This document shows positions 18,239 to 47,300 of a DNA stretch of 64,000 bases, one piece after another. How positions within the stretch are numbered: position 1 is the first letter of the stretch; the number at the start of each line of letters is the position of its first letter. The position numbers were made by a program, and so were the translations under genes. The DNA is taken from positions 370,825 through 434,824 of the forward strand of contig MNCI01000614.1 in the NCBI GenBank assembly GCA_015680685.1, written 5' to 3'. Under the pieces are notes generated by a model that made no database searches, was not told where the DNA came from, and saw only the letters and a program-made list of their open reading frames with translations. The DNA is from Gnetum montanum (taxonomy: Eukaryota; Plantae; Gnetophyta).

Positions 18239-19040
18239 CTAAGGTGTTACAAGAGAAGGTGGAGCACTAGCATCATTGCCATTGGGGCCACCAATGTCAC
18301 TTGGTACATGTACCATAAAAACATAAGTCTAAGCAATAATTGACACATGAAACCAAATTACATTAAACTAGACTAAAATAAACATTCCAAAATAAAATAA
18401 ACTATGTAAACCTAGGAGGGATCTAGTGTAACATCCTCTGATGGGAGGCTCAAAAGGTCCATCTCCAAATGATGGAGGATTTGAACCTCAGCCATGTGAG
18501 CCCACTCCACCTCCTTGAGATTAGTATCTTCCAGAATGTTTCTTTCATTGATCTTGGTCCATGTAGGTGGCTTTCACGAAAATGTAGTAGTAATCACCTC
18601 CCCAAAAGTAGTAGAGACGTAAGGGGATGGGGAATCAACTATTGTTAAAGAGCCTTAAATACTTTGAAGATTTTTCTACTTAAATCCCTTTCATGAATAG
18701 CTCCAACTTGCAACTTTTAGTATACTACTCTTTCAACTTCTTTAGATAGGATTCATGTTTAACATTATAATTCTTTTTGTGGTCTTTTTATGCATAGCCC
18801 CACTCTAGGACCTATGCATAGTAGTCTCTCCATGTCTTAGTCTTACATGCCAATAAATCCATCTATAGTGTCTACTCAACAACCAATTGATAGTAGTTTC
18901 ATGGTGAGATATGCATAAAAGTAACAGAGTTTTTATCTAAAACATTAAAGCCATGAAAATTAGCTTGTACCTACTACAAAAATTCCAAAAGCTTAAACTA
19001 AATTTTACAAAATTATTACTGAAAACTACCAAAATTTGCA
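18239..19040 (-). pseudogene. 3' exons of the antisense cargo gene in copy A
   Basis: Last exon VPSDIGGPNGNDASAPPSLVTP* matches the last exons of B and C. 18420-18800 is homologous to 25870-26280. Confidence 0.7.
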
Positions 19041-21227: not shown

Positions 21228-24200
21228 AGTTGGCTTTCACATTAACTAATAGTAGGTCTAGCCAATAAGCTGTGAGGATATACAACCCTAAGTACTCTGC
21301 TACCATTAAGTGTGGGTAGTTTTTGAGGCTTAGTCCTAAATTTTTAGTCATAAATGAAGATCACTACAATTATATTTGTGCTAAAATGCAAGGTGGCATG
21401 CTAATTCCACATGTGAAAGTAGAAGCCAAAAGAGAGTTTGAGATCATACATTGAGATGAGAAGGAATACATCCTTTCCCCATATGACAAAATTCCCCTAA
21501 ATGATGCCTATGCTTGCATCCTATCTTAGCTGATTGAGATGGATAAAGAGGATGAAAAGCATAGCTCAGAGGAGCATGTGGAAGAGAAGGATGAGTTTAG
21601 GGTAGAATCTAAGCTTGAAAACCTCCTAGGTTGGTTTTTCCAATAAATAATCCCCATGGCTATAGAGCCTTCTTGTACCGCCTCCTACCTAATTATGTGT
21701 AGTTCCACACTAGTCATCGGTGCATAACAAACACAATCGATATCATAGTCAACCATGTTTTACTTTGCCATTCCATTCACCACCAAGCCTAGGTTAGTAC
21801 AACCATCATCAATGGTGGTTACCACCAACAACCCATTGATCTTTCAAATGGGATCCACCATGGGACCCTAAGTAGCCTAGGGGTCACATACTCCTTTCGT
21901 TCCTTTTGTGCCTAAAGTACTAGCATAAACCTCATTTTTTTTATTTAGCCTACTAACTAATGTTATAACACAACTTCTTCCCTCTATTTGACAATCGATA
22001 GTGAGGCCAGAAGCCTCCAAAAAAATATCACAATCCTTCATTCAAACCCCACAGCCTATTGGGACATCATAAGACCTAGATCAAGCCTTCTAGATTATCC
22101 AAGAATTGAAAGAGGAGTTGAAAAGGCTCAAGGCTTCTAGTTCTCAAAGAGTCAAGATCATGAATGTTTACCAGAATAATCCTATTAGTCCTATGGTCCC
22201 ACCCCTAAAAATTCCTTATGGTGTTTCTATTTCCCAATTTACAAAGTATAGTGATGAGGTTGATCTCAACGTTAACATTATAACATTTGTTTTGGAGTGC
22301 TTGTTATTACAAGCATGGCCACAATATTATGAGGATTTTTCCTATGTCCTTGACTAGGAAAGCGCTTGACTAGTACCACACCCTACCTAGAGGATCTATA
22401 TCCTTAGTTAAGGACCTGATAGCCCAATTCATTAACCTATTCTAGTATAACTTGAAGCCTAACACTATTCTTAATAAGCTAATGAGGGTCAAGCAATGAC
22501 ACCTTGAACTAGTGTAGAAGTTCATCCAATGATAGAACGAGTTGATAAATGAGATACTAGAGCCTATAGTTGAAACCCACCTTTTGGTTATATTCAAGGG
22601 GAAGATCAATGATTTTATTAAGTGTAAGCTATATTACCTTGATCCATGATCACTTAGTCATGCCTTCTCTCAAACAAAAAACATAGAGGATTTCATGGAG
22701 GCCAATCATGACCCCACCTACGTGGCATCCAAAAATCAACACACCTAAAAGGACAAGGAGAGAGGTAAATAGAATAACATGGTTGTGGAAATCATAACCA
22801 AAGAGGCTAGCACAACCAAATAGAGGCCAAAATCCAATCCACTCAAGGCCCCTTTTAACAACTAAGATATCTAGTTGTTGACCTCTAGGACCACTACATT
22901 AACTACACCTAGATCAAAATTTAACTAGAAGGACTATAGCAAGTACAATAGCTTACCTTTGAAGCCATATAAACTACTAGATTAACTATTGAAGAGTGGA
23001 CATATAAAATATAAACAAATGACTAAAGATACTCCAGAGAAGCACAAGTAGCTATGCAAAATAGCCAAAGATCCCACTCAAGTGACAAAGGATGATCCTT
23101 AACTACCTAGGTACTTTAAGCTAGATCACTTTTTCCATTATCATCAATTTCCTAGTCATGACAGTAACTTCTACCTTTCTTTGAAGGATAACTTGAAAAT
23201 GATGATAAATAAAAGAGAGTTAATCCTAGATGCCTCCAACTTGGTCCAATTGCCAAATTAGTTGATGCAAGTGTATAAGGACACTTTGAATGCTAATAAC
23301 AACCTTTACATTATATTGACATTTAACATCGATGACAATCAGAGATCTATGAGGAAACATTTTATGATTTAGGTAGCCCTTCTCGTGTGATAAAAGGGCA
23401 TCTTTAGCTTCGACTAGCTCAAGTTCTCCTTTTGTTGTGGGAGTACCATCATGAGTGCCTTTTTTCATTAGGGTGCCTTAGCCCATCACAACTTAACCTA
23501 CCTAGACATCTAAATAGTAACCTCCTATGATGGCTAATGCCACATCCTCTTCATCCTAGAGAATCAATGACAATCCAAAAGCCTTAACCAAATAGAGGAA
23601 GAAGCCTAGGTAGAAGGCCAACAACAATAACGATGATCAACAAACAAAGTCATGCAAGGAAGTGGGCCTATTGAACTTCACTTTCATATCCATAGTACCT
23701 ATGAATTCTACAACCCAAGCTATTTCTAGAAGTAAACCATGAGAGAAAAAAAAAAAGCTAAGAGAATAAGAAAGAGAAAAACCTACATGCATTTTGAGGT
23801 GCATGAAGGAAGTGAAGCACAGCCGAGGTGATAAGCCCATGGCCAAAGATAAGAACTTCCTGAGTGCAATGAATTAAGTCAAGTAGTTTCTCAAGTAGAA
23901 GAATACAACCTTGAGCTTGCATGACTTGATCATGACTTTTACTACACATCATGAAGTGCTAGTTAAGATGTTGACTTCTATCCATGTTAGTGAGGACATC
24001 CCTACTAACGAGAAATGCATCCATGCTATAGTTGTTCTCTTTTCACCAAGGAAAAAGAAGCCAACATTGCTGGTGTTCCACAATAGTGAAGTAAAGATTA
24101 ATTCCCAAAATAGCAAAGTAACAAGGGAACCTCTTTTTATAACCATATGCATAGGGTATTACAAGGTTCATCAAGCACATGTTGATGATGGTGCCACAAC

Positions 24201-24767
24201 TAATGTTATCCCATGCAACATTGTTGAGCACTTGAGCTTGACTAAGAAAATTCAACATACAACAACATCAGCTCTCAAGTCCTTCAATGGGTCAAGGGTA
24301 GTTGTCAAGGGGTATATATCCTAAGATTATTTGGTAGGAAAGAAATTCCCCTCCATTGCCAATTTCTTAGTGATGAAGCAGATGCCAGGTTTAACGTTAT
24401 CTTGGGAAGACCATAGTTAGCCCAATTATAGGTCATTTCTTCACCTATCCATTAAGAGATTCACCTTCCTTAGGAGGGAGGTGAAATCATCATTCATAAT
24501 GATAACATGGTTTCCCTGGTTGTTAACAACATAGATATAAAGTACGAGTCTAAAGTGTAGATTCAAGAAGAAACTCCTAGCTATGAAGTCTAGTAGCCTG
24601 AGAGAGTAGAGAAAGCCAAAAGTGACAATGATAAACAATGGAAAAAATTGTGGGAAGAGCTTCCCTTCAACATTGGTGGTGAACAAGGTGGGGAATAAAA
24701 ACTCATGTAGAATAGATCTTACACATTTCCTAATATTTCAAAGATTAGGAAAATTTTTCACAAGTGA
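21228..24767 (+). pseudogene. gag: gag-protease ORF of Tat copy B
   Basis: PLKIPYGVSISQFTKYSDEVD; HFFHYHQFPSHDSN..LKDNLKMMINK; protease HQAHVDDGATTNVIP (ORF 23911-24324); ends KIRKIFHK*. Confidence 0.87.
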
Positions 24768-25049
24768 GGTGCATCCCTAATCCTTTTGCATTATGCTCTT
24801 GTAACCTATGTAACCATGCACTGATAGCTAGTTAGCCTAGATTTCCTTTGTTTCTTGTTGAGTTTTTTTGTTTGCTTTATTTTAACCTTTTTCAACATGT
24901 AGCCTAGAGACTTCATTTTATTTGCATTTCTATTTATTGTGGTAGTTTTCTTTCTTTATTTTCCTTATTTAGCATGATATAAACTAGAAGACCCATAAAA
25001 AACTTTAAAAATGAAAATTGCCAGAATAAATATGAGTTTCCTTTCAACC

Positions 25050-25683: not shown

Positions 25684-28600
25684 TCACATCAAGAATTTAT
25701 TGGGGGCATCCAGAAAAGGAGGTGGTTGATCATCATCATCATTATCATCACTAGGGTTGCCAACATCACTTGATGCCCCCTGTGACACAACAACATACAA
25801 TCAATTAGTAATCGATAACCAAAACTATAACTTGAAATCAAAATTGAAAACATAAAAGCCATCAATATTGAAGGGAATCTAGCTCCATGAAATCCTAAGG
25901 AAGATGTTGAAGGCTAGTCTCCAAATAATGGAGAATCTAGTCTTTCATCATGTTGGCCTAGTTAACATCCCCAAAATTGATGCCATTGAGGATGTTTGTC
26001 CTATCCATGCTCATCCATGATGGTGACTTCCATGAGACTGTAGTCCTAGAGATCTTGTCTATATCTATAGTAACCTAAGGAGAAGGAAATTTGACTATTG
26101 AGAGAGTGCTTTCAAAGTGTTTGTAAGTGCTCTAGGCTTGAATTCCTTGAATGAATAGCTCCATCTTATACCGTTCAGTCATCTCTTTCTTCAGCAACTT
26201 CAAGTATGCCTCCCAATCAATCTTATAATGTCCCTTATGATCATTTTGTGCTCAAACCCACTTTAGGACCCAAGCACTATAATTCTTTTAGTCTTGGATA
26301 TTTCAAGAGATCAAATTCATATGAATTTTCTACTTGGCTAGCTACTTGGAAAGGACCACCTTATCATGGATGGTGCACTAGTAGCAGGCCCACATGATCT
26401 CTTTGGTTTGTGAGTTTTCCAAGTTATTCACTTAAGCCTCCACGAAGGCTTATGGTCCTCAAGATCCCTAATCCTCTTAGCTTGCCTTTTATTTTCCTTC
26501 CTCAAGGCTACAACTCTCTCCCATAGGGATTAATTAGACCTCTAAAACTCCCATGAAGCTTTTGCACATGAAATTGCAAGATCAGTGGAAATTTCATCTA
26601 ACTTTAGTGGGATATTTTGAGTGTCAGGAGGAAGCTTAGGCAAGGATTCAAACTCCATGTCTTGGGCTAGGTCCCATGGAATTGATGGCACTAAAAACAA
26701 CACGTATAACCATAAACACAATATACAATCTCAAATAGCCATAACATGAAATAAAACCATATCAAAATGACTAAGGCATAGTAAAACATAGCTCTTAATA
26801 ATCTCAAGTGCAACCTATTGTAGCTAATTGATGATGTACTTTTCTATCCCATGCATGAGTTCTATCTTGTCTAGGACCTCTACTCATGGCTTCATGTGAA
26901 ACATGGATGTAGAGGCCTTTGTTGGAGGCTTAAGTACTACAAAAAGCATAACAATCATCAAGAGGTTAGAACAAAAACTAAGCATAAAACCATAAGCTAT
27001 AATGAGTAGGTCTAATGCATAGGCATACCTAGATCCCCATCCTCATTAGGAATGATGAATATGGGCTTCTTAGGTAATGGCTTATTAAACAAGACATCTA
27101 GATCATCCATATCAACATTGGCTAATCCTTTAGCCTCATGTTTCTATGAGAGTGACTCCTTTTCACACATTTTTTCCGCTACTATAGTCACCAGAAAGCT
27201 TTGCTCCTCAACAACATGTCTAGGCTTCTCCTTTGCATGCCTCTACTATTCTTCTATAGTGGCAGCATAAGCTATCCTCTCTTGCCATTGATCTGTAATC
27301 ATAACCTATTAGATAAGTTAGCACATGTAACCATAAGAAATAGAACATAACATAGCTAAAACATTAAAAATATAGCTAAGCTTACTTGCAACTACTTGAT
27401 GTGACTACTTTGTCCTGAAGAGGATCTTCTACTTGGTAGATGACTATGATGATGGTAGTGCTTCCAATGTGGGCCATTTCAACTTGGACCTATTTGCCCC
27501 ATTAGCCTTGAAACATAACCATCAGGCTCTTGAGATGTTCATAGAAATTGTCAAGGGCTCCTCCCTCATGCTATTAGTGGATTAATACTACATAAAACTA
27601 AATCCTTTGGTGGTAATAGACAATGAATCTTATGATGGATTTTGGGCCTACATAGTTGGATAAAGATGCTTTTTCCAAGGCCTAGAGAGTTGGTTTGGTT
27701 CCTGGCATGTCCATTGTCTATTTCTACTCACCTCCAAAAATTTGCAAATATCGCTAGATAACTTGCAAAAATGCAAAATGCATATATATTATCATGGAGA
27801 TGTCTTCGTGGAGTTTGAGGATTTTCTCCTTGAGGCCTATAGCCAGGAAAGTAGCCTAGCTAAAGTGTGTGACCTTTAGCAAGAGCTTTTTGAAGGTTCA
27901 TCCCTATGTGATATTGATTCCCCTGCTAGTGCACCTACATTATGCTTGTCATTCTCACTATGTGTAGAAGACCTAGATAGAGGAACCCATGCTAGGTGTT
28001 ACCCTAATGCATATTGAGAAGCAAACTAAGAAATGACCAAGGTAATGTAGGGGGCATTCCCACTTCCATAGTTGCCTCAGGGGATTGACATGAAAGTCTA
28101 GGCATGTAAGGTGATTGTGTTTAACACAAACATGTAGGAGGAAGAAACAGCTTCAAGGTAGGGGCATCCTTAGTGATCCTTCAGTGATCAAAAGGGCTAA
28201 AGGGATTTTCCCATGAAGAGGGACTCCTGACTCTCAAACACGATCCCATTGAATGAGAAAACTCAAGGACTTATTCCCTATAGCTTCTAGTATTTCATAA
28301 GTCATGTCCATCTTGCCACACTGAAGGGTTAGAAAGCAATCTTGAATGAACATTGATCATGTTTGAGAATGAATATTAATCATGTCACACCTTTCATGTG
28401 CATGACAACAGTTTGGGAAAGGCATGGGATCCAAATAAAGGATAACATTCCTTTTCTTCATGATTCATGAAGCCATCTATGACAAGTCTAGAGTGGTCAT
28501 TGCTAGCACCAAGCCACTCCTCAACTTCCTTATGATGGTTGACCTCCTTCACTATTTACGCAGTAACCATTATCCCATTAGTGGAAACATTGAACAAGTT

Positions 28601-31445
28601 ACAAAAGGTTTACTCATTTATAGCAATGGTGATAAGTATGCCTCATATGCTGGTGGGAACACATTGGATCCTATGTTAAAGAAGTTAATGATGTTCAACA
28701 TCTATGTAGAATGAATGGAAGGGCTAGGCACATGAAGACATCAAAAAAACTAGCAAGTGTGATGTTTGTCTAAATGTCCTCAAATTCTTGCCCTCTCAAT
28801 CACTCATGTGTCAGTCCCACATCATTGAACTTCAGGATGAGAGTATTCATGGAGCATCTGGAGAGGGATATGATGACATCAGAAGGAATGGAAGGTCCTG
28901 CAAGCCAACGATAATCGCCTAGCATTAGTACAAGCATGTTTAGACCAAAAATAAAGACCATAGGACACTTAAGATCCAAATAGCCATAAAATATTAAGTA
29001 TAACATAGAAAACTATTCTTATTCTCATCTTTCTTCTTCTTGTTTAGTGGAGCTCACTTAGTGATTTTAGTGGTAATGCCTTTATCTCTGACACTCTTGG
29101 AAGTCACCCACCAACTACATGTTATTTTGGTAGCTACACACTTCTTGTAGATAGGGTTGAAGTTAGTGGTGTATCAAAATTCCTTCTCAACTATTCATAC
29201 ATGATAGTTGGGATATTGGGGCCAATGGTAAATACATTTAGGGTATTTTGGACCACCACCAAGGTTTGATCATTTATGATCAAGCTTGGATCATTGACCC
29301 TATACATTCAGGAAGTTCACAAAACCAACAAATTAGGATAGGTGACAAAGCTAGTAAAGTGAAAACATCAAAAACCTATAATAATCATGCTTACCATTGT
29401 AAGTAATACACACTCAGAGGATTCTAGAATAAGGTATGGACTCTATGCACTATCATTAGAGTATGATCAGCATTGTACTGAGAATAATCTAGCATCCTCC
29501 AAATGCTTGAAAGGTAACATGTGTCAATAGTGTGCTTTGTCTCCATCGACTGTCGCGTTGCTTGGGTTACTAGATCAATAGTTATGAACCTAGCAATCAT
29601 CCTCGTTGACCTAGGTAGTAGGGTCTTAACTATGATGATCATAACATCTGTGGACAAGTTTAACCACATCATTACACTGAAATTTTGCAAGATGTAGGCA
29701 AGGAATTTCCTTGCCCTTGGTCAGAACCACAATGAGCCCCTCTTCAAGACGATGTCATCCAAAGGGATGTTTGCCTTTGGTTGGCTAACACAACAGAGGA
29801 TGCTAACTAGCTTAGCCATGATGAGTATGGGCTTTAGCAAGGTCCTTCATGGAGAAACAAGAACACCATTAGAACCATGTCTCAACACTTAGAATTTTCT
29901 TATGAATTTTGTAGAACATCTTAGTTGGGGGTGAAATTAGCCCTTGTATAAAAATCTAAAGTGTTTGTTAAAATTAATTTAGAGATTCAACAACAACCAT
30001 GTTACAAATCCCATATCCATTAAAATCTATAGACAAAAAATCACAACATTATTATGCCTTAGCTCAAACCATGCATCAACATAGAAAAATCTTAAGAACC
30101 TAGACATAGCCATAGTAAAAAAATCACTAAAAATAGCAAAAAAATTCTTATCTTTTGTAAAATCAATTAGAGCATAGTTAATATCTTTGGAAATCCTCAA
30201 TAGCATGGGATGTTGACAAGAAAAATTCTTAAGCATGTCAATGCTGCCCATATCCAAGGGATAAAGCTAATACAACTAAAAATTAAGCATAATTGACATA
30301 GCCTTAGTTAACAATTCATTAAAAATACATCCTAGCTCCAATTTTAGTGATTCTAACATGGAAGAAATTATAAAATCAAAATTTTTTTATCCATAGCTAG
30401 TATAACCAAAAATTTACAACCATTATTACATGAGACATAGCCAAAATTATACAATTGTAGCAGTTACCATAAACCCTCTTTCACGTAGGGTTGGAAAAAA
30501 TTTGTCAAAAAGGTTTTCACACTCCAAATGGAGTGATTCCATGACCATTTGAATGCTTGAATTGATTCCTATGCATATGAATTTAGAAAAAAAATTCAAA
30601 ACCTTTGTCATTTTTCAAAAAGCAATTTGTGAACATTCATTAAAATCTGAAAAATGGCATAAGCCCTAATTGTGAAACCTAACTAAAATGGCCATACTTC
30701 ATCATCACAACTCCAAATTGACCTATATCACAACCATTAAAAACCTTAAACATAATACTAAAAGCCCATAATCTTAGATTTTTGCAATCCCAAGCCATTT
30801 ACATAATAAAAATTTATAACTTTGCTTAATTTTTTCACCAAAAAAGCATCAAATAACACAAATTTTGCAAACACTATTTTAAGTTAGCCTTGAATTAAAA
30901 CTAAAATAGTTAAAAAACCTTAAAAATATGTAAAATTCATCAAAAATTTTCATGGAAGTTTTTCAAATTTTAATTTTGAAAAATATTGTAGCCTAGATCC
31001 AACAAAAATGGCTCCACCCCCAAATTGATGAAAAAAGGACATGAAACAACAAACTTAATTTTAAAATCAAATCAACTAAAGCATAAATAACAAAATTAAC
31101 TTAGGTCTATTTAGAAACCATCAAAATAAAATGTAGTATTTTATTGAAATTTCATTTTATCAATTCCCTTAAGATAGAACTAAAAAAATGACTCCTACCT
31201 TAGCTACGAAAGAATAAAAGTGGCTAGAAGACTAAAGAAAATGGCCAGGAATGGCCTAACTTGGGGTGTTTGAAAGAATAAAAATGGCTTGGAGACTAAA
31301 GAAAATGGCTAGGAATGGCTTAACGTGGGATTTACATAGACAAATATTGGATAAAAGATAGCTTGGTTAGTTGTGATATGTTCTTGATAGCCTCATCTAC
31401 CTCTTGAATCCTTGGATTTTTGCTACTATCTCCATGTTGCTTCAT
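25684..31445 (-). pseudogene. Antisense multi-exon cargo gene of copy B (NIF/FCP1-like domain, transposon-associated domain, charged/coiled-coil C-terminus)
   Basis: Exon 1 MKQHGDSSKNPRIQEVDEAIKNISQL. Exon at about 29395-29887 reads WF*PRARKFLAYILQNFSVMMW..LSSIWRMLDYSQYNADHTLMIVHRVHTLF*NP. Last exon ASSDVGNPSDDNDDDDQPPPFLDAP. Coding blocks and introns are collinear with 44343-48865. Confidence 0.75.
31208..31329. repeat. 64-bp-period tandem duplication
   Basis: gaaagaataaaa.tggct...agactaaagaaaatggc.aggaatggc.taac at 31208 and 31272. Confidence 0.9.
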
Positions 31446-32069: not shown

Positions 32070-34175
32070 TGGGCATCCATGCTAGGGAAACCCTACCTAA
32101 CATGACGTCTTGTATGGAGAAAAGGGGATAAGACCCATACTTATTCCCCAATGCCCATCAAGCCTAGATCTTACCCCTAAGGTGGGCCCACATGACATAG
32201 AACCCTTCTAAGCACCTCTATCATCCTTGAAACCTAATCAAACCCAGTTGAAAGTGCTAAAAAATTTTGAATTTAGTTAATTGATGCTAAGGGGGGCTTC
32301 CTCCATGTTGGTCAAAATGGAGCCATAGTGGATAAATGATGGATGACCTAAAATAGCGAAAATCAACCAACTAATTTCCATATTGTTAGTTTTGGATAAC
32401 CTATATTTGCCAAAAATAACTCTATTTTTCACATCTAAACCCATCTCCATGCTGGTTGAACCCCCTCTCCTCTAAATTGCCCAATGTGAGGAAATTTTGG
32501 AAGCCTAGGGAGTGTGACATAAAACCATTATCCAAGTCTCAAATTGCCATAGATTTCACTTTGACAGTCCTGGTGCCCCTCCATGACCTTTGATAGTCAA
32601 TAGTTATTGGAACTTGAGTCAATTTTCACTTTTGAAACCTTCTCCATGATGGTGAACCCTCCTACACATTGCCTAGCATGGAGACAACATGATAGCTCAA
32701 AGGTTATGTAGTAAAACCTAGTTTACAACCAAAAATAGCCCCACAACCTACCCTACTAACTTCTAGACCATACAGGAGATTACCAAAGCCTTCAGACATC
32801 TTGAAACTAATCAAACATGGTAAAAAGGCTATTTCCTCCTTTCATCCACATGGGGCCACCCTACCTACTATGGAGAAAAGGGAAGATGATTGCATGAACA
32901 ACTATGAGCCTTCAAACTAATGAACATCAATGCCAAATCTTAACACTTAATCCTCTATAGTCTTGGTGGCTTCAAAGGCCTATCAAACCCTATCAAAAGT
33001 GGCTTAAAACTTGAATATAAGTTCATACATGTTGGGGAAGATCCTCTTCTATGGTGGTCAGTGCGGAGCTAGAGTGGATGGAAGCATTGGAGGGGGAGGG
33101 GTGAGGAGGAGGATAACCAAAATATCCAAGATCAACACTAAAATTAACTTTTGTTGAAAACCCAACATTCTCGAAGGTTCTGACAACTAAAACATGACAA
33201 AAATCATCTTATTTTAGGATCTTTCTAGATTTCATGTTGAGAAACAACATGGATGTAGCTAGTAAGGTTTCTAGAAGATCATAGATACATCAAAATAATG
33301 CTAAATTACTATATGCCTATCCTACAATCCTATCAACACTCCTGGAAGCCACCATATTGCCTGAAAATGATTAGAAATTGCAAAAATCTAACCTCCTAAG
33401 GTCCTCCACATTTGCCAACATGGAAATAGCATGATAAAAGAGGGGCAAGCCTAAAAATCAATTAAAAACTCTCAAAATTACAAAATTTTAACCCTATGCT
33501 TCAACCATCACCATCAATAACCCTAGAGATGTGCATGCATAATCAAAATTGATAAAAAATAATCAAATCCTAACTCTTTTAATCTTCCATGCTAGCTAGT
33601 GTGGAATCAAGGGGATAGCTTACAAAACCACTTAGAAACCATCCAAACTACCTAATTTTGATTCTAAACCCTATCCCTCAACACTGAAAATCTTGGGAGC
33701 TAACATGCATGGTCAATTACTACCAAAAATGGCCTACATCTAAAACTTATGATCTATCCATGTTGGGAACCCCCTCTTCGATGTTGGCCAACGTTGAGCT
33801 AGTGTGGTTGAGTTGCCTATCTCCCTTTAATAGTAGATCGACACTCCAAAAGACTGGAAACCTACACTAGTAAGGCCTAAGACCTCATAGCCTCAAGTTT
33901 ATACTTGTTATATCTTATGTTAATCTTTGAATCTCATCAACTCACATCCTTCATGTTGTAAAAATCTCCCCATCATGGATCAAATGGGGAATAACCTTGC
34001 ATGACCTTAAAAAACCCCTAAACATAGAATAAATTAGCTAAAAGCTTCAGAAATCATAGCTTACAACCCTTGGAGCCTAGAAACTTGGTTGATTTCATCC
34101 CTAGATTAGTCTAAGATTAAAAAGCAAGGGCACTCCCTCTCCTCCATGTTGGCCAACATGCATATAGCATTGAGA
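32070..34175. repeat. Spaced array of inverted-motif clusters (CTCCATGYTGG / CYARCATGGAG) in copy B
   Basis: About 12 clusters near 32080, 32300, 32450, 32645, 32845, 33030, 33235, 33410, 33590, 33760, 33950 and 34145. Confidence 0.7.
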
Positions 34176-34297
34176 ATATTCCAAACTTGTTTTAACACTC
34201 AAAGCCCTACCAAAATGGTCGTAAAGCCTAGTTAGGTGATACAAAACTACTAGATCTTGATTCCAAATGCCTATTCAATCTTGTTTGACCTTGTTTT

Positions 34298-35834
34298 TGT
34301 TGGTGTCGGAAATTTTGATTGCTAAAATAGGAACCAAAAGATCCAAGCACTAGAATAGTTTTAATCTTGAATCCCAAGGGTCTTCAAGAAATGGGATTTA
34401 GGGTACCTTGGATGGTCTTGCTGATCACCTATGAACTTACTAAATGTAAAGAAAAATGGCAAATGAAAATGTAAAAGTAGACCTAGATGAAATTAGAAAT
34501 GAAGGAAAAAATGAAAACATAAACATAAAAAAAAATGAACTTGCAATTATAGATCCAAAAATGAAGAAAAAGAAAGTGTAGAAGTAGAAACATGAACAAA
34601 AACTTGCACAACATGAATAATAACTTTATTAAAAAATAAAGAATAATGTTCATGAAGTATAGATTTTGTGCCAAAGGTACTAGGAGTTGGTGATAAGAGC
34701 TTGAAGTCTATTGGAGAGGGTAGGTTGTGTTATATTGCAACTTCATAATCTAGTTTCTTACCAACTCTAGTTTCTAGCAATTTTCCATTAGTTTCTACTA
34801 GGATCTGCAACGTTGTTACAGAAATGAGTTTTTTCTCTTAGTGTAATGGTAGCCATGTGGGAGTCTCTGTGCCTAGCTTAGTGCCACTTTTTGCTACCAA
34901 ACACTAGAAATAATGCTATAAATGGGTTTTATGAGTTGTGAAAATGCAAAAATTATTGTTATGAGTGTAAAGTTCGAAATTTCTACCAAGGATTGAAAGA
35001 ATGCCAAAGTGCTCGTAATGAAAAGGTGTTGGAACCTAAAAATGGTGTTGATGTTGGGTATTTATAGGATTAGTGTGGCTATTTTTCGGGTTGTACATCA
35101 CTACAATGATTGCTGATAGATTGGTGTCAATGTGTGGGTTCAAACAATCATCTACTTTAATGGTAGTTACCATTTATAATAAGGCTGCTATGAACTATAA
35201 CCAAAAAAATAATCTATTTATAAATAGTAAATAGACTTTTGTGACTATACTAGCACCATCCTTACTACACTATCCTTCATGGACTATTATGAGGTTGTTG
35301 GAAAGTAGCAAAAGTGATGGAAAATGTGCAAAAAGTTGGAATCTATGAAAATGGTGGAATTCGTTAAAAAGTATCATGTCTAGTGGAGAATGTTGTTTAT
35401 CCTAGCCATTGTTGACTTGGGATAACTACACTAGCTATTGTTGGAAAAATGGAAATTTCAATAACTCCAATGTTGCACTTATGCCTAGGTCTTGGTGGTG
35501 ACTACACTAGCTATTGTAGTACCACTATCTACTATAAGTACTATTCCTACTATAGCTACTATGTCTACTAAAAATGGCTCTAGCGTAGTTGGGGCTATAC
35601 CCCTAAAAAATCAATGAAAATTCCAATTTTAGCCATTCCCAAGGTTTTTTCAGCATTCCCAAGCCTAGATATACACATGATGTATCTTTTTCTATGTGGG
35701 AAGTAAGGTAATAATAGGTTTTGAGGCATTTTTTACCTCAGAAAGTTGAAGTATGAAAGATTGTAGCTCATGGACTAAATATCTCACATTTACAATGAAT
35801 CCTTGCCTCAAGTCAAGAAATTAAGGTTACAACA
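34298..35834 (-). repeat. 3' LTR of Tat copy C
   Basis: Intact inverted termini TGTTG/CAACA; reverse-complement homolog of LTRs A and B. Confidence 0.88.
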
Positions 35835-36794
35835 TGATTTTTTTGTGATTTTTCATTTGACCTTCATTGTTGATGTCTAGAGGATTAACCAAAGAGACAT
35901 CAACGAAGAATATAAAACACCACTACATGTCCATCACTAATGTTCCCTCTTCATGCTTGATCCAGTAGTGTCAAATCATGACCAAGAGTGCTTGTGATGA
36001 TGGGGGAAGGTTATGATAGTGAAATGATAGTAAGGTCATAAGGACATGGCCATGAAGGTTAACAATGCATCCCAATTGTTAACAACATGGCTATGGTATG
36101 GCATGGACATATTGATCTATCCATTTGGATTGTATGGTTCTCTCAACATATGCGTTTGAGGAACCAACACCTCACTTCAAGGTTAGTTCAGCCATTAGGC
36201 TCCTCCCTTTGTATGTTTGGAGGCATTGATCTATCCTTTAAGCTTCGTTAACCACTTGACTTCTTAGCAGTTTGCTTTCTCATTTCTTTTTCTAGGGTGA
36301 AACCTTCAATGGGTTTCTTTTCCAAAGCTGAATTTGATTTGGTTTTCCCATTGAGTGAGTTTTGTTACACTTGATGGAATAGATGGTTTTCCATTGAATG
36401 AAGTGCATTACATTCAATGGGCTTGATGGTGAAGCACAAGGTAAGAATGTCATATGGCCATAGAGCATGAATGTCAAATGTTAGTCAACATTATCATCCA
36501 AGGTAAGAAAGGTTATAATCAGGCTATGGGGTTGGGCTCAAGGAAATTGTAATAGAAAAAATATAAAACTATCACTCTTGACATGGTGGGAAAAACTCAT
36601 CGAATCTTTCACATCAAGGTCACGTTATGACTTACTACTATGATGAGTTGCACGTACAATGACTCCACGCTTCATCTTATAAGCACAACTCCAAGATGAC
36701 AAGAGAATGAAACAACAAAAGTTATGTTATTATAATGAAATACATAAGGCCACATAGAATAGTCAATAGATCTGATCATCAAAGGTTGCAAATG

Positions 36795-36872
36795 TTGCTA
36801 GTTTAAGGCCTTGGTAGGCCAGTGATGCTAGTTTAAGGCCTTGGTAGATAGTGTTGCTAGTTTAATGCTTTG
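36795..36872 (-). repeat. Three units of about 30 bp (TGCTAGTTTAAGGCCTTGGTAG) downstream of integrase
   Basis: Directly visible; reverse complement of the unit at 25170-25310. Confidence 0.85.
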
Positions 36873-36913
36873 GAATTCCATGGAAAGCAAGCTCAATTGT
36901 TGATTATTGTTAG

Positions 36914-39900
36914 CTACCTGTAGTATGATTTTAGATAGGAATGATTGATTGAATTTCCCAACTCATATCCATCCACATTTGCTATCTAGTAGGCCCCATT
37001 GCTATAGGCTTTGGTGATCAAGAAAGGCCCTTACTAATTGGCTGAGAATTTGTTTGCATGCTCATGGATAAACTTAAGAACAAGGTACCCTTCCTTGATC
37101 TTGCATTTTCCAAGGTTATGGTGATGTTGCTACTTTTTCCTATTATAGTAGCACTTGGTGTGAGCAAGCATTCACACATGCTGCTTTGCATTGAGTCTAG
37201 GTCCATGGTATGCAACTCCTTATTTTGTTTGTCATTGATAAAATTAGATAGGGTCATGACATCAAATATAATGATAACATTGGGAAAACCCCATTGAGTG
37301 AGTAATGATACCTACAATTAAAGAGGTAAAACTACTTCATTACCATAAATAAGAATATATTTGGTTATGCATATTGTAGCATGGTATGTGGTTTTGTAGG
37401 CCCAAAGTGCATGGCCAAACTGCTCATGCCACATGTGTTTACTATTGTTCAATATTTTCTTGAGCAAGTTGATGATGGCCTTATTTCTTACTTCAACTTA
37501 TCCATTGGCTTAAGGGTAATAAGGTGATGAGAAATAGTGGTTAATGCCTAGGTCATGACAGAAATTTTCTACTTCTTGGCTACTAAATTGTGGTTCATTT
37601 TCTGTGCCTATGGTCATAGGTATGCCAGTATGGGCTACTATGTTGTCAAGAATGAATCTATAGACTTTTTAAGATATCATTTTCCTTAGGGGAATAGTCT
37701 CAACCCACTTGGTAAAGTATTTGGTTGGGATGATGATGAAGATATTCCCTATGGAAGACTTAGGCATTATAGGTCCAATGATATCCAACCCCGATCATTG
37801 AAATGGCCAATTTTTCTGAGTGGTGTGTAACTTAGTTGGTGGTACAAGTATGAGATTATTATGTCATTGACATGTATCTCAAATTTTGACCTTTTTTAGG
37901 TAGTAATTTTCAATATAAGGCCAATAATAACCTAACCATCTAATTTTAGTAGCCATGGATTTAGATCCTATATGTCCTCTACACACACCCTCGTGAACTT
38001 GCTCTAAGACTCTTCTAGATTTAGTTTTACCTAAGCACACTAATAATACATCATCATAGGACCATCGACATAATGTGTTATTGCCTAATATGACATACTA
38101 TTTTGATTATTTATGTACATCATTCTTTTGAACAACAGTCAAGTCTTATGGAGGTTCTTCATGCATAAGGTAAAACTTGACATCATCATACCACTCCTTT
38201 ATAGGAGCAATATGAACTATGGCCACAAAGTTATCCTTAGTATTCTGCATGATGGGAAGAGCATAGTCCCTAATCAATGTTGACAACTTACTAAACACAT
38301 CTAGCATCACATTGAGGGCTAGCATTGTGATAACATCAACTATAGAATTTTTGTTTTGGGGTATATGTTGGATATCAACATTTGTAAATTGTTGTAATGG
38401 TTTCTTTCCAAAGTCATAGTAAGATTGTAAATATTTGGCTTTACAAATGTAAACCTCAATTACTTAGTTTAACATAAGTTTTGAATCACCTTTAATCATT
38501 AATCGTTTAATTCTTAGGTCACAAGCTATCATCATTTCCCCAATTAAACCCTCATAATTTACTATGTTTTTAGTGCATGGGAACTCAAGATGATAAGCAA
38601 ATGATTGGATTTCACTAGACAAGAAGGTAATAATGGCAACAAAACTATTCCCATGCAAAGTTGAAGCTCCATAAAAGTACATGTCTACCTTATAACCATT
38701 AGGTACTTGGCTAATGGTTTTAACATGTTCATCCAAAAACTCAAGGTCGATGATTGCATGGTCATCAATAGGTGAAATAATATGTTGTATAGCTATAGCT
38801 TGATCCTTTGTTGAGGATTGAGAGATGTAGTAAAGGTCAAACTCCACTGTTATGGGTTTTCATTAGGCTCTATGGCCACTTTCATAGATGTTGGTTATGG
38901 CTCTAAGTATATTATCCTTGAAAATGACATTAGCTTGGCTTTTGAAGAGGTAGTGTCTCCACTTTTTCAATGAGAGGACTAGTGCTAGATAATACTTCTC
39001 TAGTTTATTTTATTGAGTCTCATGGGTAACTAATGTAAGGATAAGGTAGTATATTGGCATATCTACTCCATCATCCCATTTTTGATAGAGTAGAGAGGTA
39101 ATAGATGTGTCAAAGATAGTAAGGTAGATATAAAATGGTTTACCTTCTTGTGGAGGATAGATTGTTAATGGTTGTGCTAACTCTTTCTTAAGGTTTTCAA
39201 AGGCTTCATGGCATTGAGCCATTCACTCATAATGAACTCCTTTCTTAAGAAAGTATTGCATGGCTTGTAACTTATCCATAAGGCTAGTGATGAACCTATG
39301 AATAAATTACAATCTACCTTACAATCCCTAAAGCTCCTCGAGGTTAGTGGGTGCTACCTATTTGGATATCATCTTAACCTTTAAGGATTGATGCATATCC
39401 CTACTTCAAACACTACAAAGTTTAGCATCTTATTGGTCTTGATACTAAAAAAATCTTGGGATTAAGCCTAAGTTCATACTTAAGGCATTATTTAAGAACA
39501 AGATCTAGGTCATTAGCATGATTTTTGGCCACTTTGGACTTAATGGTTGTACTGTCTATGTAATCATTGAGTAAACCTAGCATGTAATCACTAAATATAC
39601 ACATCATAGCCCTTTTATAGGTTTCTCCTACATTCTTAAGACCAAAAGGCATATTGGTATAGTAAAAAATACCTCAATGCATCATGAGAAATCATCTATA
39701 AAGGATAACAAGGCATGTCTGGCTGTAGTATTGATAATTTAATCAATACTAGGCAAAGTAAATTCATCCTTGATGGTTGCCTTATTTAGGTCTCAAAAAT
39801 CTATGAAAATGCAAATACTCCCATTTTTCTTAGGGACTACCATAATGTTAGATACCCATTATGTGTAATCAATGGATCTAATGAAACCAACTTAGTATAG

Positions 39901-40344
39901 CTTTGTGATTTCATCACGAACTACTAGGGCCAAATTATGTGTAATATTATAGAATGTTTCCTTAATTGGTCTAATGCTAGGGTCAAGTATGATGTTCTGC
40001 TACACTAGGCATTGGTATAGGCCTAGCATATCTTCATATGACTAGGTAAAGGACTTAATGTTGTATTATAGGACACTGGTAATGTCTTAAGCCCATTGAG
40101 GTTCTAGTCAAGAACTTAATTTTAGCATTTTCTCCTCACCACTATGTGTTGTGATAGGGACCTCAACCAGAGAATATTTGGTTGTGTCTCTTGCCTCTAG
40201 ATGAAAGGTCTTAATTAGGTTCTTATGCCATTCTAGAGGTTTCTCTATTGAGGCTATGTTCTCAACAAGACTCTTAGGCTCAAGATCATGATAATCATGG
40301 TCAATACACCACTTAACATCCCCATGAGGTCCATGTAGGCACAA
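36914..40344 (-). pseudogene. pol: pol of Tat copy C: RT - RNase H - archaeal-type RNase H - integrase
   Basis: RT: VSNIMVVPKKNGSICI, MPFGLKNVGETYKRAM, DYIDS (decayed YxDD). RH: CHEAFENLKKEL..PIYYL. aRH: MYFYGAS..FPCTKNIVNYEGLI..IKGDSKL. INT: GLDIIGPI..YFTKWVE, SSPYYP*ANG. Ends YLKSYYR*. Confidence 0.92.
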
Positions 40345-41239: not shown

Positions 41240-43780
41240 CCAGATATGACTATGCTAGGCTAGTAGGCCTTAGCATAGTCACATGGAATCACCAATTTTA
41301 TCAGGTTTCTAGAGTTAAAACGAAGTGCAATTATAGCTAGGAGGAATGGGGGTAGGGTTATGGTTATTTTGTGTTAGTTTTAGGTCATTTTGAGCTGTTT
41401 ACTATTGATTTTTATTGCCACATTTCCCCCTCCCATTGGGACTAAATTAGCCTAGTGTAGTCACCACCTTCTTTAATGTAGTCTTGCAAAAAATGAATTT
41501 TGATGAGTTTTGAAGCTTAATTAACCATGCTAATGGGCTTATGAGGCCATTGGTGTTGCCGGCTAGGGTTTTAGTGTTAAAATTTCTCATTTTCATGTCT
41601 ATTTGGATCTTTGATCATCAAATACCATGGGACTACATTGGGCATATAGTTCCCAATGTAGTTAAGGAATTTGGATGGAAAGATGATGGAAAAGAGTGAA
41701 GTTTGTCTTATTTACAAAGGTTTGAAGGTCTATGCATGCTCCAAAAAAGTTTTGGGTCTTTCCAAGAATCAATTTTAGAAGCTTTTGGGAAATTTTAATG
41801 ATTCTCAAGTGGAATACGCTAGGCCTTGGTAGGGACTATTGTGGTCCAACATAGTTTCAAATTTCTCCAGCATAATCAAGTTTCAAAACTTATAAAATAT
41901 TACTTTTATTACCAAATTGACTTTAGTTGATTTCAAAACTTCTAAAAGTGAATTCTAAGTAATTATGGACAAGTTTTTGGAAAATTTAGATGAACTACAG
42001 CTCAACCTATGTAAGGACTACATTGGCTTAGTGTAGTCCCAATTTCCTTCAGCATGTTTGTGATGGTTAAAATTGATAAGAAAAGGTATATATCATGGCC
42101 AAATAGGCTCCGATGAGGTTCTAGGGTTCATCAAAAATGAATTTTCTATCATATTAATCAATCTTAGGCAATTGGAAGTGGACTACACTAGGGCTTGAGA
42201 TGGACTATGCTGGACTGCCATAGTCCCATTCCTCCTTGGCATAGTTGGATTATGTTTGTTCAAAAATGATGAAATTTGACTCAAATCCAAGGTCTGATGC
42301 TTCTAATGTGTCTTGTCAAGTATCTAAAATTTAAAATGACATTCTGCTAGTTAAATTAAACTTGGTTTAAACCCCAAAATGTGGACTACATTGGCCTCCT
42401 ACTAAAACTATGTTGGCCATGCATGGTCCTCTCAATCTTCAATGTAGTCACACTTTGGCATAGAAAATGTGGATTTATATGATTAAAATCAGCTTTGAAA
42501 AGATCCTAGGATTTATTAGTAGTAGAGTTAGGTCATTTTTGGCTATTTTTCATGAATTTTTTATCGACTACATTGAGCTTTGGCAATGACTACATTGGCC
42601 CAACATAGTCCCACCTTTCTCGAGCGTAGTTAAGGTGGTGATGATTAAAAAGTGAAAATGGAGATTTTGGTAGTCAAACAAGCTTAGATAGGGTTTTAAG
42701 GCTTGTAAAAATTAGATTTAATTCATATTTAATAAATTTCAACTAGTTTTTTATGGACTACATTGGGCTCTGGAAGGGACTATGTTGGCCTAGTTTAGTC
42801 CCAATTCTCCTCTATGTAGTTAGGATTATCATGGTTAAAAATGAAGAAAAATTACAAGTTTTGTTGTCAAAAAGCCTCAAATAAGGTTCTAGGATTTACT
42901 AAAGGTATATTTTCATGGTTTCTTGATGGATTTTAGCAACTTTGGATGGACTACACTGGCCTAGTAGAGTCCAAGTCTTCCATTAGACTAGTTGAGGTTG
43001 GGGATGTAAAAAATCAAAAAATATGATAAGGTTCATATCAATCTTTAGCTCTGTTGGATTTTAGGTTTCTAGGGAGGTGAGAAGAACTAGGAAATGAGTT
43101 ATTTGAAGCTTCCTAGATGGAATACACCAACCATCTCTAGTGACTACACTAGCCTAGCATAGTCACTCTTGGGAAATGGTGTTTGGATTAAGAAAAGTCA
43201 AAAACTTGCTTCCATTCCTAGTCTGGCATGGTTTTGAGATCTCTAAAGATGGATTGGGACTTATGACTAATGGATTTATGGATTTTAAGTGGACTATAGT
43301 GGGAACCTACTAGGACAACACTAGCTCAAGAAAGTCCCCTTAGTCTCTAGTGTAGTCCCATGTGGAAGCATAGATTTATGGATTTTCTTTGAGTCTTTAG
43401 TTGATTGGTCAATAGTTTTAGGTTACTAGGGGTACTCAAAAGGTGTGGAGGTTTCGAGATGTAGTGTTAGAGGTTTTTGATCATCTGCATAACCCCTTTG
43501 ATCCTTAAACCTTGGGAGTACATTAGGCCAACATAGTCCCTGGGTTCCCCAGCATAGTCATGGGAAAGAGGGAAAAGTGGCACCATTTGTTGCATTTGAC
43601 CATGTTTTAGGCCTACTAAGAGCATAGACTAGGATTTAGAGAGATGGGCTGGCTATTCAGAGTTGAATGAAGGTTGGATGGAATGGATGGTATATTGTGG
43701 ATTGAATGGAAGCAAGATGTCTTACTAGACTATGCTGGGCTAGCGTTGTCCATCCTCAAGGTCAACATAGTCCTATGTTA
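41240..43780. repeat. Spaced array of nested inverted-motif clusters (GACTAYRYTRG / CYARYRTAGTC) in copy C
   Basis: About 14 clusters near 41250, 41450, 41630, 41820, 42000, 42180, 42385, 42565, 42755, 42950, 43120, 43290, 43520 and 43730; e.g. ggactacattggcttagtgtagtcc at 42015. Confidence 0.8.
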
Positions 43781-44342
43781 ATCAAGTTTTCCATATGAAT
43801 TTTGGAGGTTCTTGTAATCCCATTCATTACATATGTCAATACTTTCTTACTTGGTTTTTTTGGAAGGTCTTATCATGGCTAGGGATTGGGTTTTGGTAGA
43901 TGGATAGGAATTCGTATGAAGCAAGGTTTCCATAAGCTTCGAGCTCTATGTAGTCAAGCCTTATGGGCAAAATTGTTAGCATAGTCATAGTATTAACTTG
44001 CTTGCCTAGTGCCCTATGGAACCCACATGAAATTAGCAAGTTTAAATATTTTCATAACCTAGCTTAGTCTTTAGTTTCCAATTTCATCTCCAAATGAAGT
44101 GAAGTTGCACATGGAAACTAGGGTTTTGGTGTTGGCTCTTAGGTTTTAAGTGAGTTTTAGGGGGAAAATTTTGTAGAAATCATTATTCTCTCATATTTTC
44201 TTTGTTGTGCACAAGTTGGAGATCTTTTACTATCCTATTACCCATCCTTAGTGTAGTCAAGGATTTTCATACCAATAGTGCCAATGTAGTTACTTCAGGA
44301 TTGTCAGAACTCCATAGTTTTTTTTCATTCTCTGCATCAACC

Positions 44343-47300
44343 ATGAACAAGAAGGTGCTCATGAAGAATTCCACATTGGATGAGGTAAAGGAAGATGCAT
44401 AGGACTTATCACAGCTACCTTGTTCAAGGATTGGAGAAGGTGTTCCACTATTTATCCTAGGTACACATTTCTTACTAGTATTTTCACTTTTCCATTTATT
44501 TTATTTTTGGGGTTTTCTTTCTTTTCTCATATATAGGCTTGTGTATTCATTATTTTGAGATTTTGTAAAACTACCACCATATATCTAGTCAATTTTTATT
44601 CATTTTCAATGTTATTTGGGCTTTGGAGTTTGGTTGCATTAAATTTTAAATTCTTTTTCCATGATTTCCATGGCTATTTTGCTTTTTCTGCCAAAAAAAG
44701 CAATGCCACTTTTGAATTTTTTTTCTAACTAAATGACTAGGTTTTTAAATTTTCTAAGTCCATGAGGTTATTTTCTATCATGTTTTAGTGAACAATAGTT
44801 TTAAACCACCAAATTGTTCCTAATAGTTAATTTTCTATGGCTATTTCCGTTAGGCTGCATCAAGTCATGGTATGGGTTTGTATTTAATAGTTAATTTTCT
44901 AATGGTTCATGAAATTTCAAAATTTATGGTATGGGTTTGTATTTAATATTTCAAGGATTCCAACAAACTTTTAATCATTTAATTTTAAAAAATGTTTTGA
45001 CTTTTATTTTCATTTTCGTGAGCTCGTGCGAAATACGTTTCCAGCATGATGACCACAATTAGATCAATTTGGTAATTTTTTGTGAAAATATGCTTAATAA
45101 TTTTATTAGTTTATTATTATGAAGTTGTATTTCATGAATTCATGATTCCAATGGATATGGAATCATTTAATTTACTTAATTAGTTACTTTGTTATGGCCA
45201 TTTTTGTACAATCATGCAAAATCGTAGTTATAAGGTTGTTATGCATTTACCCCTATGAAGATGGGCAATGTTGAGATTGTGAAAAGTTTTTTCCTTAAAC
45301 ATCCCATGATCTTGGGGATATTTTTGGATGTTGGAAAGGGGTTGGAAGTGGTCTAGATAAAAAGAAATTTTTTTTCATATTTTTTAAGTGTTTTCCTATG
45401 GCTATTTTGGTATTAAATTGTAAATCTTGGTTGAATCCTGGTTATAGACTGGTTGTATTTTGGGTTTTTTTCTAATTGTATAATTTAACATTGAAGTTAA
45501 AATTTTATTCTTACATTTTCATTTTCTAGTTTTTATCTCTAAACTATCAATTCCATGTTTTCAGTTGTAATCAATCATTATTGCAATTTTAGTGTTAAAA
45601 TATCATTTAATGTGAATTGTTTCAATTTTTTCTAAGTGTTGTTTACTATGTTTGATGGTTATAAGACTAAAAAAATAGGTGTAGTAGTTGTAATGTTATC
45701 TTTCTTCTAAATTTTATGTATTTTTTTTAATTTTAGGTTTTGCTTTGTATTGCTATAATAGTTGTGGTTGGATGTTATAGGACCTTCTTGAAGGCCATGC
45801 TCATGGTTATAGAGATGGTGTGGCTTTTATGATACATCCATATCCATGGGCCTAACACTCCAATTCTAGATATGGAGTGGGATCACCGTGTGATATGGTT
45901 TAGGCCAAGAGCCAAAGACTTCCTTGCCTATATTCTTAAGAACTTCAGTGTGATGGTTTGGTCACACTTGATGTTTGAATCTATAGTAGTGATTATACAG
46001 TCCATCCTACTTGGGTCCTATAGCTTTTATTATTAAGTTTACAATGGATGAACTTGATTCTTGTGCAGAGGGAGAGAGAAATGATGGCAATACCAATATG
46101 GATTCTCGCAAATTGTTAAAAATTTGGAAGATGCCTGAATTGAGTTAGTATAATGTGGATAATACTTTGATTGTTGGCCACCATGCTCATATATTTTTCC
46201 AAAACCCTCCAGGTACCATTTACCACATAGAGGGGTAAGTAAGGTTGCCTTTGGGTTTATGGTTACTTTCTTTTTTATGTGCTTAAGGTGTAATGATATT
46301 TTCATTGTTTCACTTTCCTAAAAGATCAAGACAGATAAGTGAGGCTTAATCAAAGGTGAGGACCTATTTTTCTTACCGTACATAGCTTTTAGAGGTGTTT
46401 ATAAAAAGCCCAAATGTATGGCTTGTGATAGTGGAGCAGTTGGAGGATGACTTTGAAGAAAGCATTAGATGCCATCCTAAGTCTTATAAGAGATGTCTAG
46501 AGAATGGGACAATAGATAGTTGGTGAGAAAACCCATCTCTTGATGACATAGAAGTAAATCCATCTTCTAGAACTCTTAAGATATCTAAATCATATATGCG
46601 AAGTAAGTGTATTTTTGATTTGTTGATTTCATGCTAATGTTTTTCTAGTTATGTAGTCATTAAGCTATTTTGGTTTTGGCTATCTAAGTAGTTATATTGG
46701 TTTTGTTTTGTCTTGGCTATATTTTTATTGTAATTTATTTTACACAATGCACCTATGCTAAGTCTAACAAGCTATTCCTCATGTTTGGTGAGGTGGAATC
46801 CTCACAAGATTGGTTGATGGATCAGGAACCTAATGCTACAAGTGTGAGGATTATTCATGTGGGCCTATTTGACCTCTTCATGGCCCCAAGCCTGATCATT
46901 TCCACTACAGAGATGTTGAACATTATTAACTCTTTAGCAAAGGAGTCAAGAAGTTTTTCATTCATGTTCATAGTGTGATTTTTATTTTAGACATTACTGT
47001 GTCCACCTTTATTAATCTCTATGGTGTTCCAAATGATCGTATTCTAGTAATATCCAAAGCAGGGAGGGAAGTGAACCATTGTGGTACCAAGGGGTACTCT
47101 CTAAAATAGATAAAGTTACCATTGATTAGAGAAACGTATTTCTTGTTCTACTCCTAGGCATTTCCTAAGTTGTTATTATAGGGAAATATGCTTGACATAG
47201 AGCAAGGTTGGACCATGAAGTAGGTACTCTCAGAGGATGCTTGATTCAACTAGGCTACACACTTGATTTCTAAGCTACAATGGGAGATCCAAAAGCTTTG

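Follow-up and report, generated by a model that had tools for sequence, protein, structure and literature searches.

Does a short sequence word, repeated in the non-coding parts of decayed retrotransposons and changing its flank from one subfamily to the next, mark the binding sites of a protein that the elements themselves encode? This question is raised by the 64,000-nucleotide stretch of DNA analysed here (the window), for which an initial annotation described an array motif that switches between subfamilies in step with the LTR of each element. A parallel was drawn there with the VANC proteins, whose short target motifs lie in non-coding tandem repeats and co-evolve with the proteins (PMC5735166). 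Published work leaves the function of the antisense extra genes of Tat-clade retrotransposons unsettled (PMC7264820, PMC11963269). At this locus the element itself carries a candidate target, in the form of two natural word variants, each present in an LTR and an array.

Three nested Tat-clade elements

The window consists of repeat DNA of plant type, in which self-comparison, translation and alignment resolved three nested LTR-retrotransposon copies, A, B and C, which belong to one group and are old and heavily deaminated (CpG o/e 0.10-0.11, CHG 0.22-0.25). Their parts, in window positions, are as follows.

11440..12843, + strand: 5' LTR of A, from a three-way LTR alignment; 5' end approximate, terminus ATCA
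11693-12125: C-type sites in LTR A, 8 sites by two-model scoring
13006..13606, - strand: seven C-type sites in the 5' UTR of A, in one shared orientation
13950..17430, + strand: gag-protease of A, with stops and frameshifts; 66% DNA match to B and C
18240..18890, - strand: 3' end of the A cargo gene, truncated by the insertion of B; matches B 26350-25900 and the last exon
19040..20494, + strand: 5' LTR of B; 5' end approximate, terminus ATCA; B-type sites at 19391-19615
21340..24790, + strand: gag-protease of B, broken
25700..29855, - strand: antisense cargo gene of B, ~7 exons, broken
32070..34175, + strand: array B, (C)TCCACGCTGG-type sites (deaminated) in direct and head-to-head clusters, period ~188 bp
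34316..35936, - strand: 3' LTR of C, TGAT...ATCA; purine tract 35952-35942; C-type sites at 35243-35590
36870..40330, - strand: pol of C, with RT, RNase H, second (aRH-type) RNase H and integrase; broken
41245..44295, - strand: array C; GACTACGCTGG-type sites cluster at spacings of 22 bp (direct) and 12 bp (head-to-head), with a period of ~190 bp
45776..48870, + strand: cargo gene of C, broken, on the strand opposite to the element; its introns are of GT-AG type and their places match those of B
49890..51670, - strand: 3' part of gag and protease of C, truncated at 51673 by another LTR

Element B is interrupted by C immediately after array B. All three are Tat-clade, Ogre-like elements. The Pfam order in pol of C is RVT_1, RT_RNaseH_2, RVT_3, Integrase_H2C2 and rve, which places a second, archaeal-type RNase H (RVT_3) between RT_RNaseH and integrase, as is characteristic of the Tat clade. 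Within this clade, RT followed by RNase H, a second RNase H and integrase is the Ogre/Retand arrangement (PMC6317226); aRH between RH and INT, and gag-PR apart from RT-RH-INT, are two features shared with the Ogre subclade. The PR-RT gap in C spans ~9.5 kb and contains both the cargo gene and the array. For A, the gag-PR label is based on translation and on tblastn of the PR of B to Tat loci; PR shows a codon-position signal, and a Pfam search of the A gag-protease region gave no match.

Several features of the surroundings were also recorded. Directly downstream of LTRs A and B, the sequence at the primer-binding site (12844-12862, 20495-20513) reads AATTTTTTGG(A/T)TGTAATAG and is degenerate. 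Related repeats of 29-35 bp follow PR in A and B (17797-17888, 25206-25292) and flank pol of C (36793-36873, ~40615-40650), and contigs with short sides join 36821 to 40614-40620, representing either pol-less derivatives or merely the repeat. A short insert at ~49135-49535, between the PR and the cargo of C, contains a 103-bp duplication (49186-49374) and, judged by eye, resembles a solo LTR of another family. Element A was inserted into minus-strand integrase-like sequence of another element (~10800-11430, recognised by eye). Younger, CpG-rich elements occupy the window ends (3956-4060, 61453-61517; CpG o/e 0.45 and 0.8) and bear tandem palindromic GCGATATCGC-type repeats, a second motif-array type of LTR element.

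The word and its flank

The core A-CG-CTG-G is common to A, B and C, and is preceded by (G)ACT- in array C and in LTRs A and C and by (C)TCC- in array B. All six sites quoted in the initial annotation are present in the sequence, two of them off by one base (19450, 35580). The deamination-tolerant C word, ACTAYRYTRG, has 42 matches in the window, of which LTR A holds 6, UTR A 7, LTR C 4 and array C 22, with 3 elsewhere; in each of these four regions the count beat 200/200 dinucleotide shuffles. Thus, 39/42 matches fall where a single variant had been said to be shared by the array and LTR of C and the LTR and 5' UTR of A. In element B the same word is absent from the LTR, the UTR and the array alike. 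Conversely, the B word TCCAYRYTRG has 15 matches, nine in array B (0.1 expected), one in LTR B and five scattered, and none in LTRs A and C, UTR A or array C.

Two-model scoring at a threshold of >=9 bits agreed with these counts. The numbers of B-type/C-type sites were 14/0 in array B, 0/42 in array C, 0/7 in UTR A and 0/1 in UTR B; for the LTRs they were 2/0 in B, 0/8 in A and 0/4 in C (LTR B versus A and C together, Fisher p=0.011). Together, the two approaches separate B from A and C, which bears out the claim of a shared core with a subfamily-specific flank. When the flank was left free, T:A at position 2 was 13:1 and 0:34 in arrays B and C, and 0:7 and 0:4 in LTRs A and C, respectively; counted over cores, position 2 is A in 34/35 cores of array C and T in 13/17 cores of array B.

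The further claim that the LTR of B carries the variant of its array is firm for the array and holds to a moderate degree for the LTR, where two full sites, enriched partial sites and variants among related copies support it. LTR B contains one perfect 11-mer, five CTCCAYR against 0.8 expected (0/200 shuffles) and five relaxed B words against 0.6 expected (0/300 shuffles), and relaxed C words are absent from it. In the flank-free test, its T:A ratio at position 2 (4:1) is indistinguishable from the coding background (18:11, p=0.64). We compared the LTR B zone with the contigs of four runs (112-144 contigs each); the site at 19451 varies among related copies solely at four deaminable letters, and the C and G letters of these copies reveal two further TCT-type sites, at 19391 and 19541. 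Thus, the word of LTR B is (C/T)TC(C/T)ACGCTGG rather than strictly CTCC. Taken together, the flank switch is real, the evidence from LTR B is moderate, and positions 1 and 2 are the chief discriminators.

The ancestral CG and CTG that had been deduced for the core agree with the decay states of 46 C-type sites, which are CA 23, TG 20, CG 2 and TA 1 for the CG, and CTA 19, TTG 19, CTG 6 and TTA 2 for the CTG. With 2/46 surviving and ~96% deaminated, the motif CGs were unprotected in these dead copies. All four sites of LTR C align with sites of LTR A, and blastn of LTR A against array C, LTR B against array B and UTR A against array C returned no match. As LTR, UTR and array changed the same letters without other detectable similarity, linkage alone is insufficient to account for the switch. 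The elements of the window therefore carry a subfamily-specific short motif accumulated in non-coding regions, as in VANC-type systems.

Organization of the arrays

Sites in array C are spaced at 22 bp in direct and 12 bp in head-to-head orientation, and those in array B at 11 bp head-to-head and in pairs of 31-34 bp. On a larger scale the similar spacing noted at the outset was confirmed, with best periods of 188 and 190 bp. The cluster centres of array C, tested without three clusters beyond 43800, follow a period of 190 bp in 14/17 clusters (0/2000 random and 0/3000 hard-core sets); those of array B, four of which were placed by eye in part of the cluster-based tests, follow 188 bp over 9 clusters (20/2000 random, 21 and 76/3000 hard-core sets). 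Among 14 regions, the 10.4-bp phasing of AA/TT is strongest in the two arrays (array C z 5.6, array B z 4.8), followed by pol of C (z 3.4) and the B spacer (z 2.9), the remaining regions being below 2. In both arrays the clusters are G+C-rich and the spacers contain A/T tracts. The word AACCCTA occurs five times in array B, all on the + strand and none on the - strand, and five times in array C, all on the element sense strand, against 0.5 and 0.8 expected in the two arrays; in each, 4/5 of these words lie 70-89 bp from a cluster centre. Periodicity, AA/TT phasing, oriented AACCCTA and diverged spacers are additions to the first reading of this locus.

Tandem Repeats Finder called no tandem repeat in array B or array C. 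Most spacer pairs are unrelated, and related units form a single block in each array, with four units in array C (42192-42949, z 5-10) and three in array B (z 9-10). Same-sense pairs with z>4 number 12/78 for C-C, 5/55 for B-B and 6/143 for B-C, compared with 1/143 in opposite sense. The B units at 32860, 33415, 33595 and 33780 match the C unit at 41647 (z 5.6-9.5), which shows that the arrays are homologous and that the flank changed at corresponding clusters; a collinear unit-by-unit match between arrays B and C was sought and not found. The two arrays are therefore descendants of one old array that kept its grammar, let its spacers decay and changed the flank of its word. We infer one nucleosome per ~190-bp unit; in Arabidopsis the repeat-length peak lies at 170-180 bp, shorter than 190 (PMC6685187).

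The antisense cargo gene

The cargo gene is antisense and intron-containing, and lies between gag-PR and pol with the array directly upstream. Exon blocks and GT-AG-type intron contexts are common to the B and C copies. In B, exon 1 (29855-29400), which is NIF/FCP1-like, is followed by a middle part, a coiled coil, 155 codons that are also present in A, and a short acidic/proline last exon. Transversions by codon position were 69/45/97 over seven blocks (p=7e-5, biased upward by taking the best frame per block) and 13/13/28 over two more blocks; the controls gave 26/20/55 for PR and 7/11/4 for the LTR. This deficit at position 2, which resembles PR and not the LTR, argues that the cargo was under coding constraint during the divergence of the subfamilies. 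The 155-codon segment (B 25886-26350, A 18420-18890) also shows codon-position constraint, is absent from C and has no Pfam or PDB match. Between the start of the B cargo and the array, an A/T-rich tract (30001-31800) is AA/TT-phased (z 2.9) and includes a 174-bp block conserved with C; it is a candidate core promoter of the cargo.

The first exon is homologous to NIF: of the 21 profile matches with E<=0.001, Pfam assigns 20 to NIF, while the best-ranked one is a repetitive, non-NIF sequence. The corresponding C exon matches Pfam NIF at E=0.0055, below the curated cut-off, and has coiled-coil matches too. No close relative of the NIF exon was found among 1.84 billion representatives. The catalytic aspartates, in what we take to be motif I (DxD-type) and motif IV (DD), are absent from the cargo of both B and C. 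Motif IV is IVH in B and VGH in C, neither reachable from DD through C-to-T and G-to-A decay alone. As both copies are without the acidic catalytic motifs, the N-terminal NIF/FCP1 domain is likely to be inactive, that is, a pseudo-phosphatase.

By eye, the middle exon may resemble a plant mobile domain (PMD). Among 27, 34 and 28 read-through cargo pieces, Pfam returned no match to PMD, DUF1985 or Transposase_28, and with broken pieces as queries nothing in the PDB sequences fell below E 0.1. No relatives of the cargo middle were present among 252 and 1304 candidates, which is weak evidence, and a structure prediction of the middle domain was unusable (pLDDT 35.6). Separately, matches to DUF2835, C9orf72-like, SWIRM and similar weak Pfam matches were judged to be due to chance.

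Published Tat-clade genes place these features in context. Extra ORFs of Tat elements often are antisense and encode a PMD and a coiled coil (PMC4408406), and the PMD resembles the DUF1985 of VANC (PMC13547354; 10.1101/2024.09.27.615353). An anti-silencing role has been speculated for the PMDs of transposons (PMC5418596), and PMD proteins are described as associating with specific, partly palindromic motifs that adjoin teloboxes (10.1101/2024.09.27.615353). NIF was not found in the searched part of the supplements of Neumann et al. 2019 (PMC6317226), whose extra-ORF domain table may hold one.

Congruence of word, LTR and cargo

The visible material consists of two arrays, three LTRs and two near-complete cargos, the array and most of the cargo of A lying beyond view. 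LTR transversion distances group A with C (0.192, compared with 0.252 and 0.296 for the other pairs), whereas those of gag-PR do not (A-C 0.123, B-C 0.115, A-B 0.150). The motif likewise groups A with C, and the 155-codon cargo segment, lacking in C, groups A with B. Thus, the sole available contrast between cargo and motif, that of A, runs against simple congruence. The words of LTR and array agree in both elements that show both, and nothing in this material ties the word to the cargo sequence.

These results bear unequally on the two halves of the trans-factor/cis-site pair that had been proposed by analogy with VANC. The cis half emerges stronger than originally stated, with sites that are clustered and periodic, a grammar shared between the arrays and the same flank change in places that are not homologous. 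The trans half is a proposal: searches of the cargo gave no match to VANC, DUF1985 or PMD, and NIF/FCP1 is the sole domain identified in it.

Relatives and divergence across the family

When pol of C was compared with its ten matches, P0037 was 64% identical and the other 9/10 just 23-37%. P0037 is an open frame of 658 residues whose aRH-integrase part is the portion 64% identical to C, its N-terminal part being different, and no viral locus was found for it. As its frame is intact, less decayed relatives of the lineage exist. A further 19 loci from metagenomes belong to distant Tat elements (35-43%); each contains 0-3 words attributable to chance, none matches the cargo, and two have weak TRP28 matches; in viral contigs the palindromic C word has no match.

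RNA reads on 30100-50000 are few, nearly all <95% alike, on both strands and without a listed splice joint. Over the same interval, summed contig depth (at least 80%) was ~13,000-34,000 for pol, 470-1,500 for the cargo and 130-770 for the arrays, indicating that, within the family as a whole, divergence is much faster in the arrays and the cargo than in pol.

Possible functions of the arrays

The reading we favour, with a probability of roughly 0.4, is that a single sequence-specific protein, in all likelihood the cargo product, binds the arrays and LTR clusters and keeps chromatin open. Under this reading, the cargo protein would hold the LTR promoter and the spacer between cargo and pol in open chromatin. 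Each A/T-phased spacer of ~140 bp would wrap a nucleosome, the clusters falling in the linkers, and the head-to-head pairs would be read by a dimer, as suggested by the coiled coil of the cargo. The specificity of the factor would have changed first, its sites then tracking it via point change and local unit duplication. The effect would oppose DNA methylation or Polycomb, in view of the telo-box-like words that sit mid-spacer, and the N-terminal NIF domain would serve as a non-catalytic docking module. The more specific proposal of a private VANC-like anti-silencing system, in which an antisense pseudo-phosphatase/DNA-binding cargo in a giant PR-RT intron would read nucleosome-spaced linker clusters in the LTR, UTR and array of its own element and change together with them by subfamily, is one we regard as rather doubtful, and an anti-silencing function of word and cargo is put forward as a hypothesis.

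The position of the array, directly upstream of both the cargo gene and pol, and of the LTR clusters, upstream of TATAAA words, would also suit an enhancer or two-way promoter for host transcription factors, driving the antisense cargo and perhaps a separate pol transcript, with the subfamilies having switched host factors or site variants. There are precedents: the palindromic motifs of Sirevirus, which occur in the LTRs and again ahead of the env-like gene, are proposed host-factor sites (PMC2829016), the antisense gene of Grande is preceded by a promoter of its own (PMC7264820), and telo-box words are host-factor sites (10.1101/2024.09.27.615353). However, B and C share their host factors, and a flank switch at dozens of sites is simpler if the reader changes with the element; we find the host-factor reading rather unlikely. 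A mostly neutral origin, from an old ~190-bp tandem array with turnover by unit duplication and with LTR and array variants linked on one RNA or copied between regions, is more improbable still. The blocks of related units in each array fit it, and elements of the Tat clade often carry tandem arrays (PMC6317226; PMC11963269), but the spacers are mostly unrelated, while position 2 is A in 34/35 cores of array C and T in 13/17 cores of array B. CG/CHG words, moreover, should be the fastest to decay, and linkage leaves the same-letter change in LTR, UTR and array unexplained.

A role in RNA is the least probable of these alternatives, and we consider it very unlikely. Here, the head-to-head pairs would be hairpins in the long PR-RT intron to which Gag or the cargo protein binds, acting as signals for splicing, export, dimerisation or packaging. 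The 12-bp head-to-head pairs are able to form a 10-bp stem, and the region corresponds to the spliced intron of Ogre (PMC6317226). Nevertheless, many sites are single or in direct repeats, the seven UTR A sites all share one orientation, both orientations occur, and periodicities of 10.4 and 190 bp are on the scale of DNA and chromatin. Should the cargo product indeed read the words, as in the protein-platform interpretation, sequence-specific counter-silencing would extend beyond DNA transposons of the Mu-like type, and the spacing of 190 bp would illustrate how a protein of this kind can act on nucleosomal DNA.

Comparison with known systems

In VANDAL/VANC (Hosaka et al. 2017, PMC5735166), as here, a many-copy, subfamily-specific motif occupies non-coding parts and the element carries a multi-exon accessory gene. 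VANDAL motifs spread by unit duplication; related-unit blocks are present here too, but most spacers are unrelated and no repeat was called by TRF. VANDAL is a Mu-like DNA transposon, in contrast to the LTRs and RT-RH-aRH-INT of the present elements, and the VANC motif YAGTATTAY has no CG, whereas the word described here has both CG and CHG. The head-to-head clusters, the 190-bp period and the NIF-first cargo are further differences, and DUF1985/DUF287 were not detected on the broken cargo pieces. As there is no Mu-like element, and neither a VANC domain nor VANC activity is shown, the system is not a member of VANDAL/VANC.

Ogre and related Tat elements (Neumann et al. 2019, PMC6317226; Ustyantsev et al. 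2015, PMC4408406) share RT-RH-aRH-INT, gag-PR apart from pol, an extra ORF with a coiled coil, and large non-coding parts with arrays. The PR-RT gap of ~9.5 kb in C, however, far exceeds the average 274-bp intron of Ogre (PMC6317226), and it contains an antisense, intron-containing gene and an array, whereas known extra ORFs are found on the 5' side of gag or on the 3' side of pol. Retand/Grande elements with TRP28 (PMC11963269, PMC7264820) similarly have an antisense accessory gene with its own upstream region, nearby arrays and a proposed role as a DNA-binding regulator; their antisense ORF lies between pol and the 3' LTR, unlike the cargo between PR and RT described here, which has no TRP28/Transposase_28 match. 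In Sirevirus (PMC2829016), a palindromic CG-containing motif is found in the LTRs and again upstream of an accessory gene, but these are Ty1/copia elements with a core conserved across species, and that report, as far as it was covered, mentions neither subfamily switching nor a 190-bp period.

Outside retrotransposons, MAIL1/MAIN/MAIL2 with PP7L (10.1101/2024.09.27.615353) offer a parallel: these PMD-C proteins have paralogue-specific, partly palindromic motifs beside teloboxes, oppose silencing and are associated with PP7L, a partner of a phosphatase family. In contrast to the cargo, they are host genes in a Polycomb context; NIF belongs to a different phosphatase family, and for the cargo a PMD is only a possible resemblance seen by eye. 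A literature search, with subscription journals and some supplements outside it, found no description of this combination, nor, on the host-factor reading, of a nucleosome-spaced enhancer in a PR-RT gap together with an NIF-bearing cargo. Judged against the sources considered, a Tat-clade accessory gene accompanied by an array is already known (PMC11963269), and the combination found in these elements is a new form of it.
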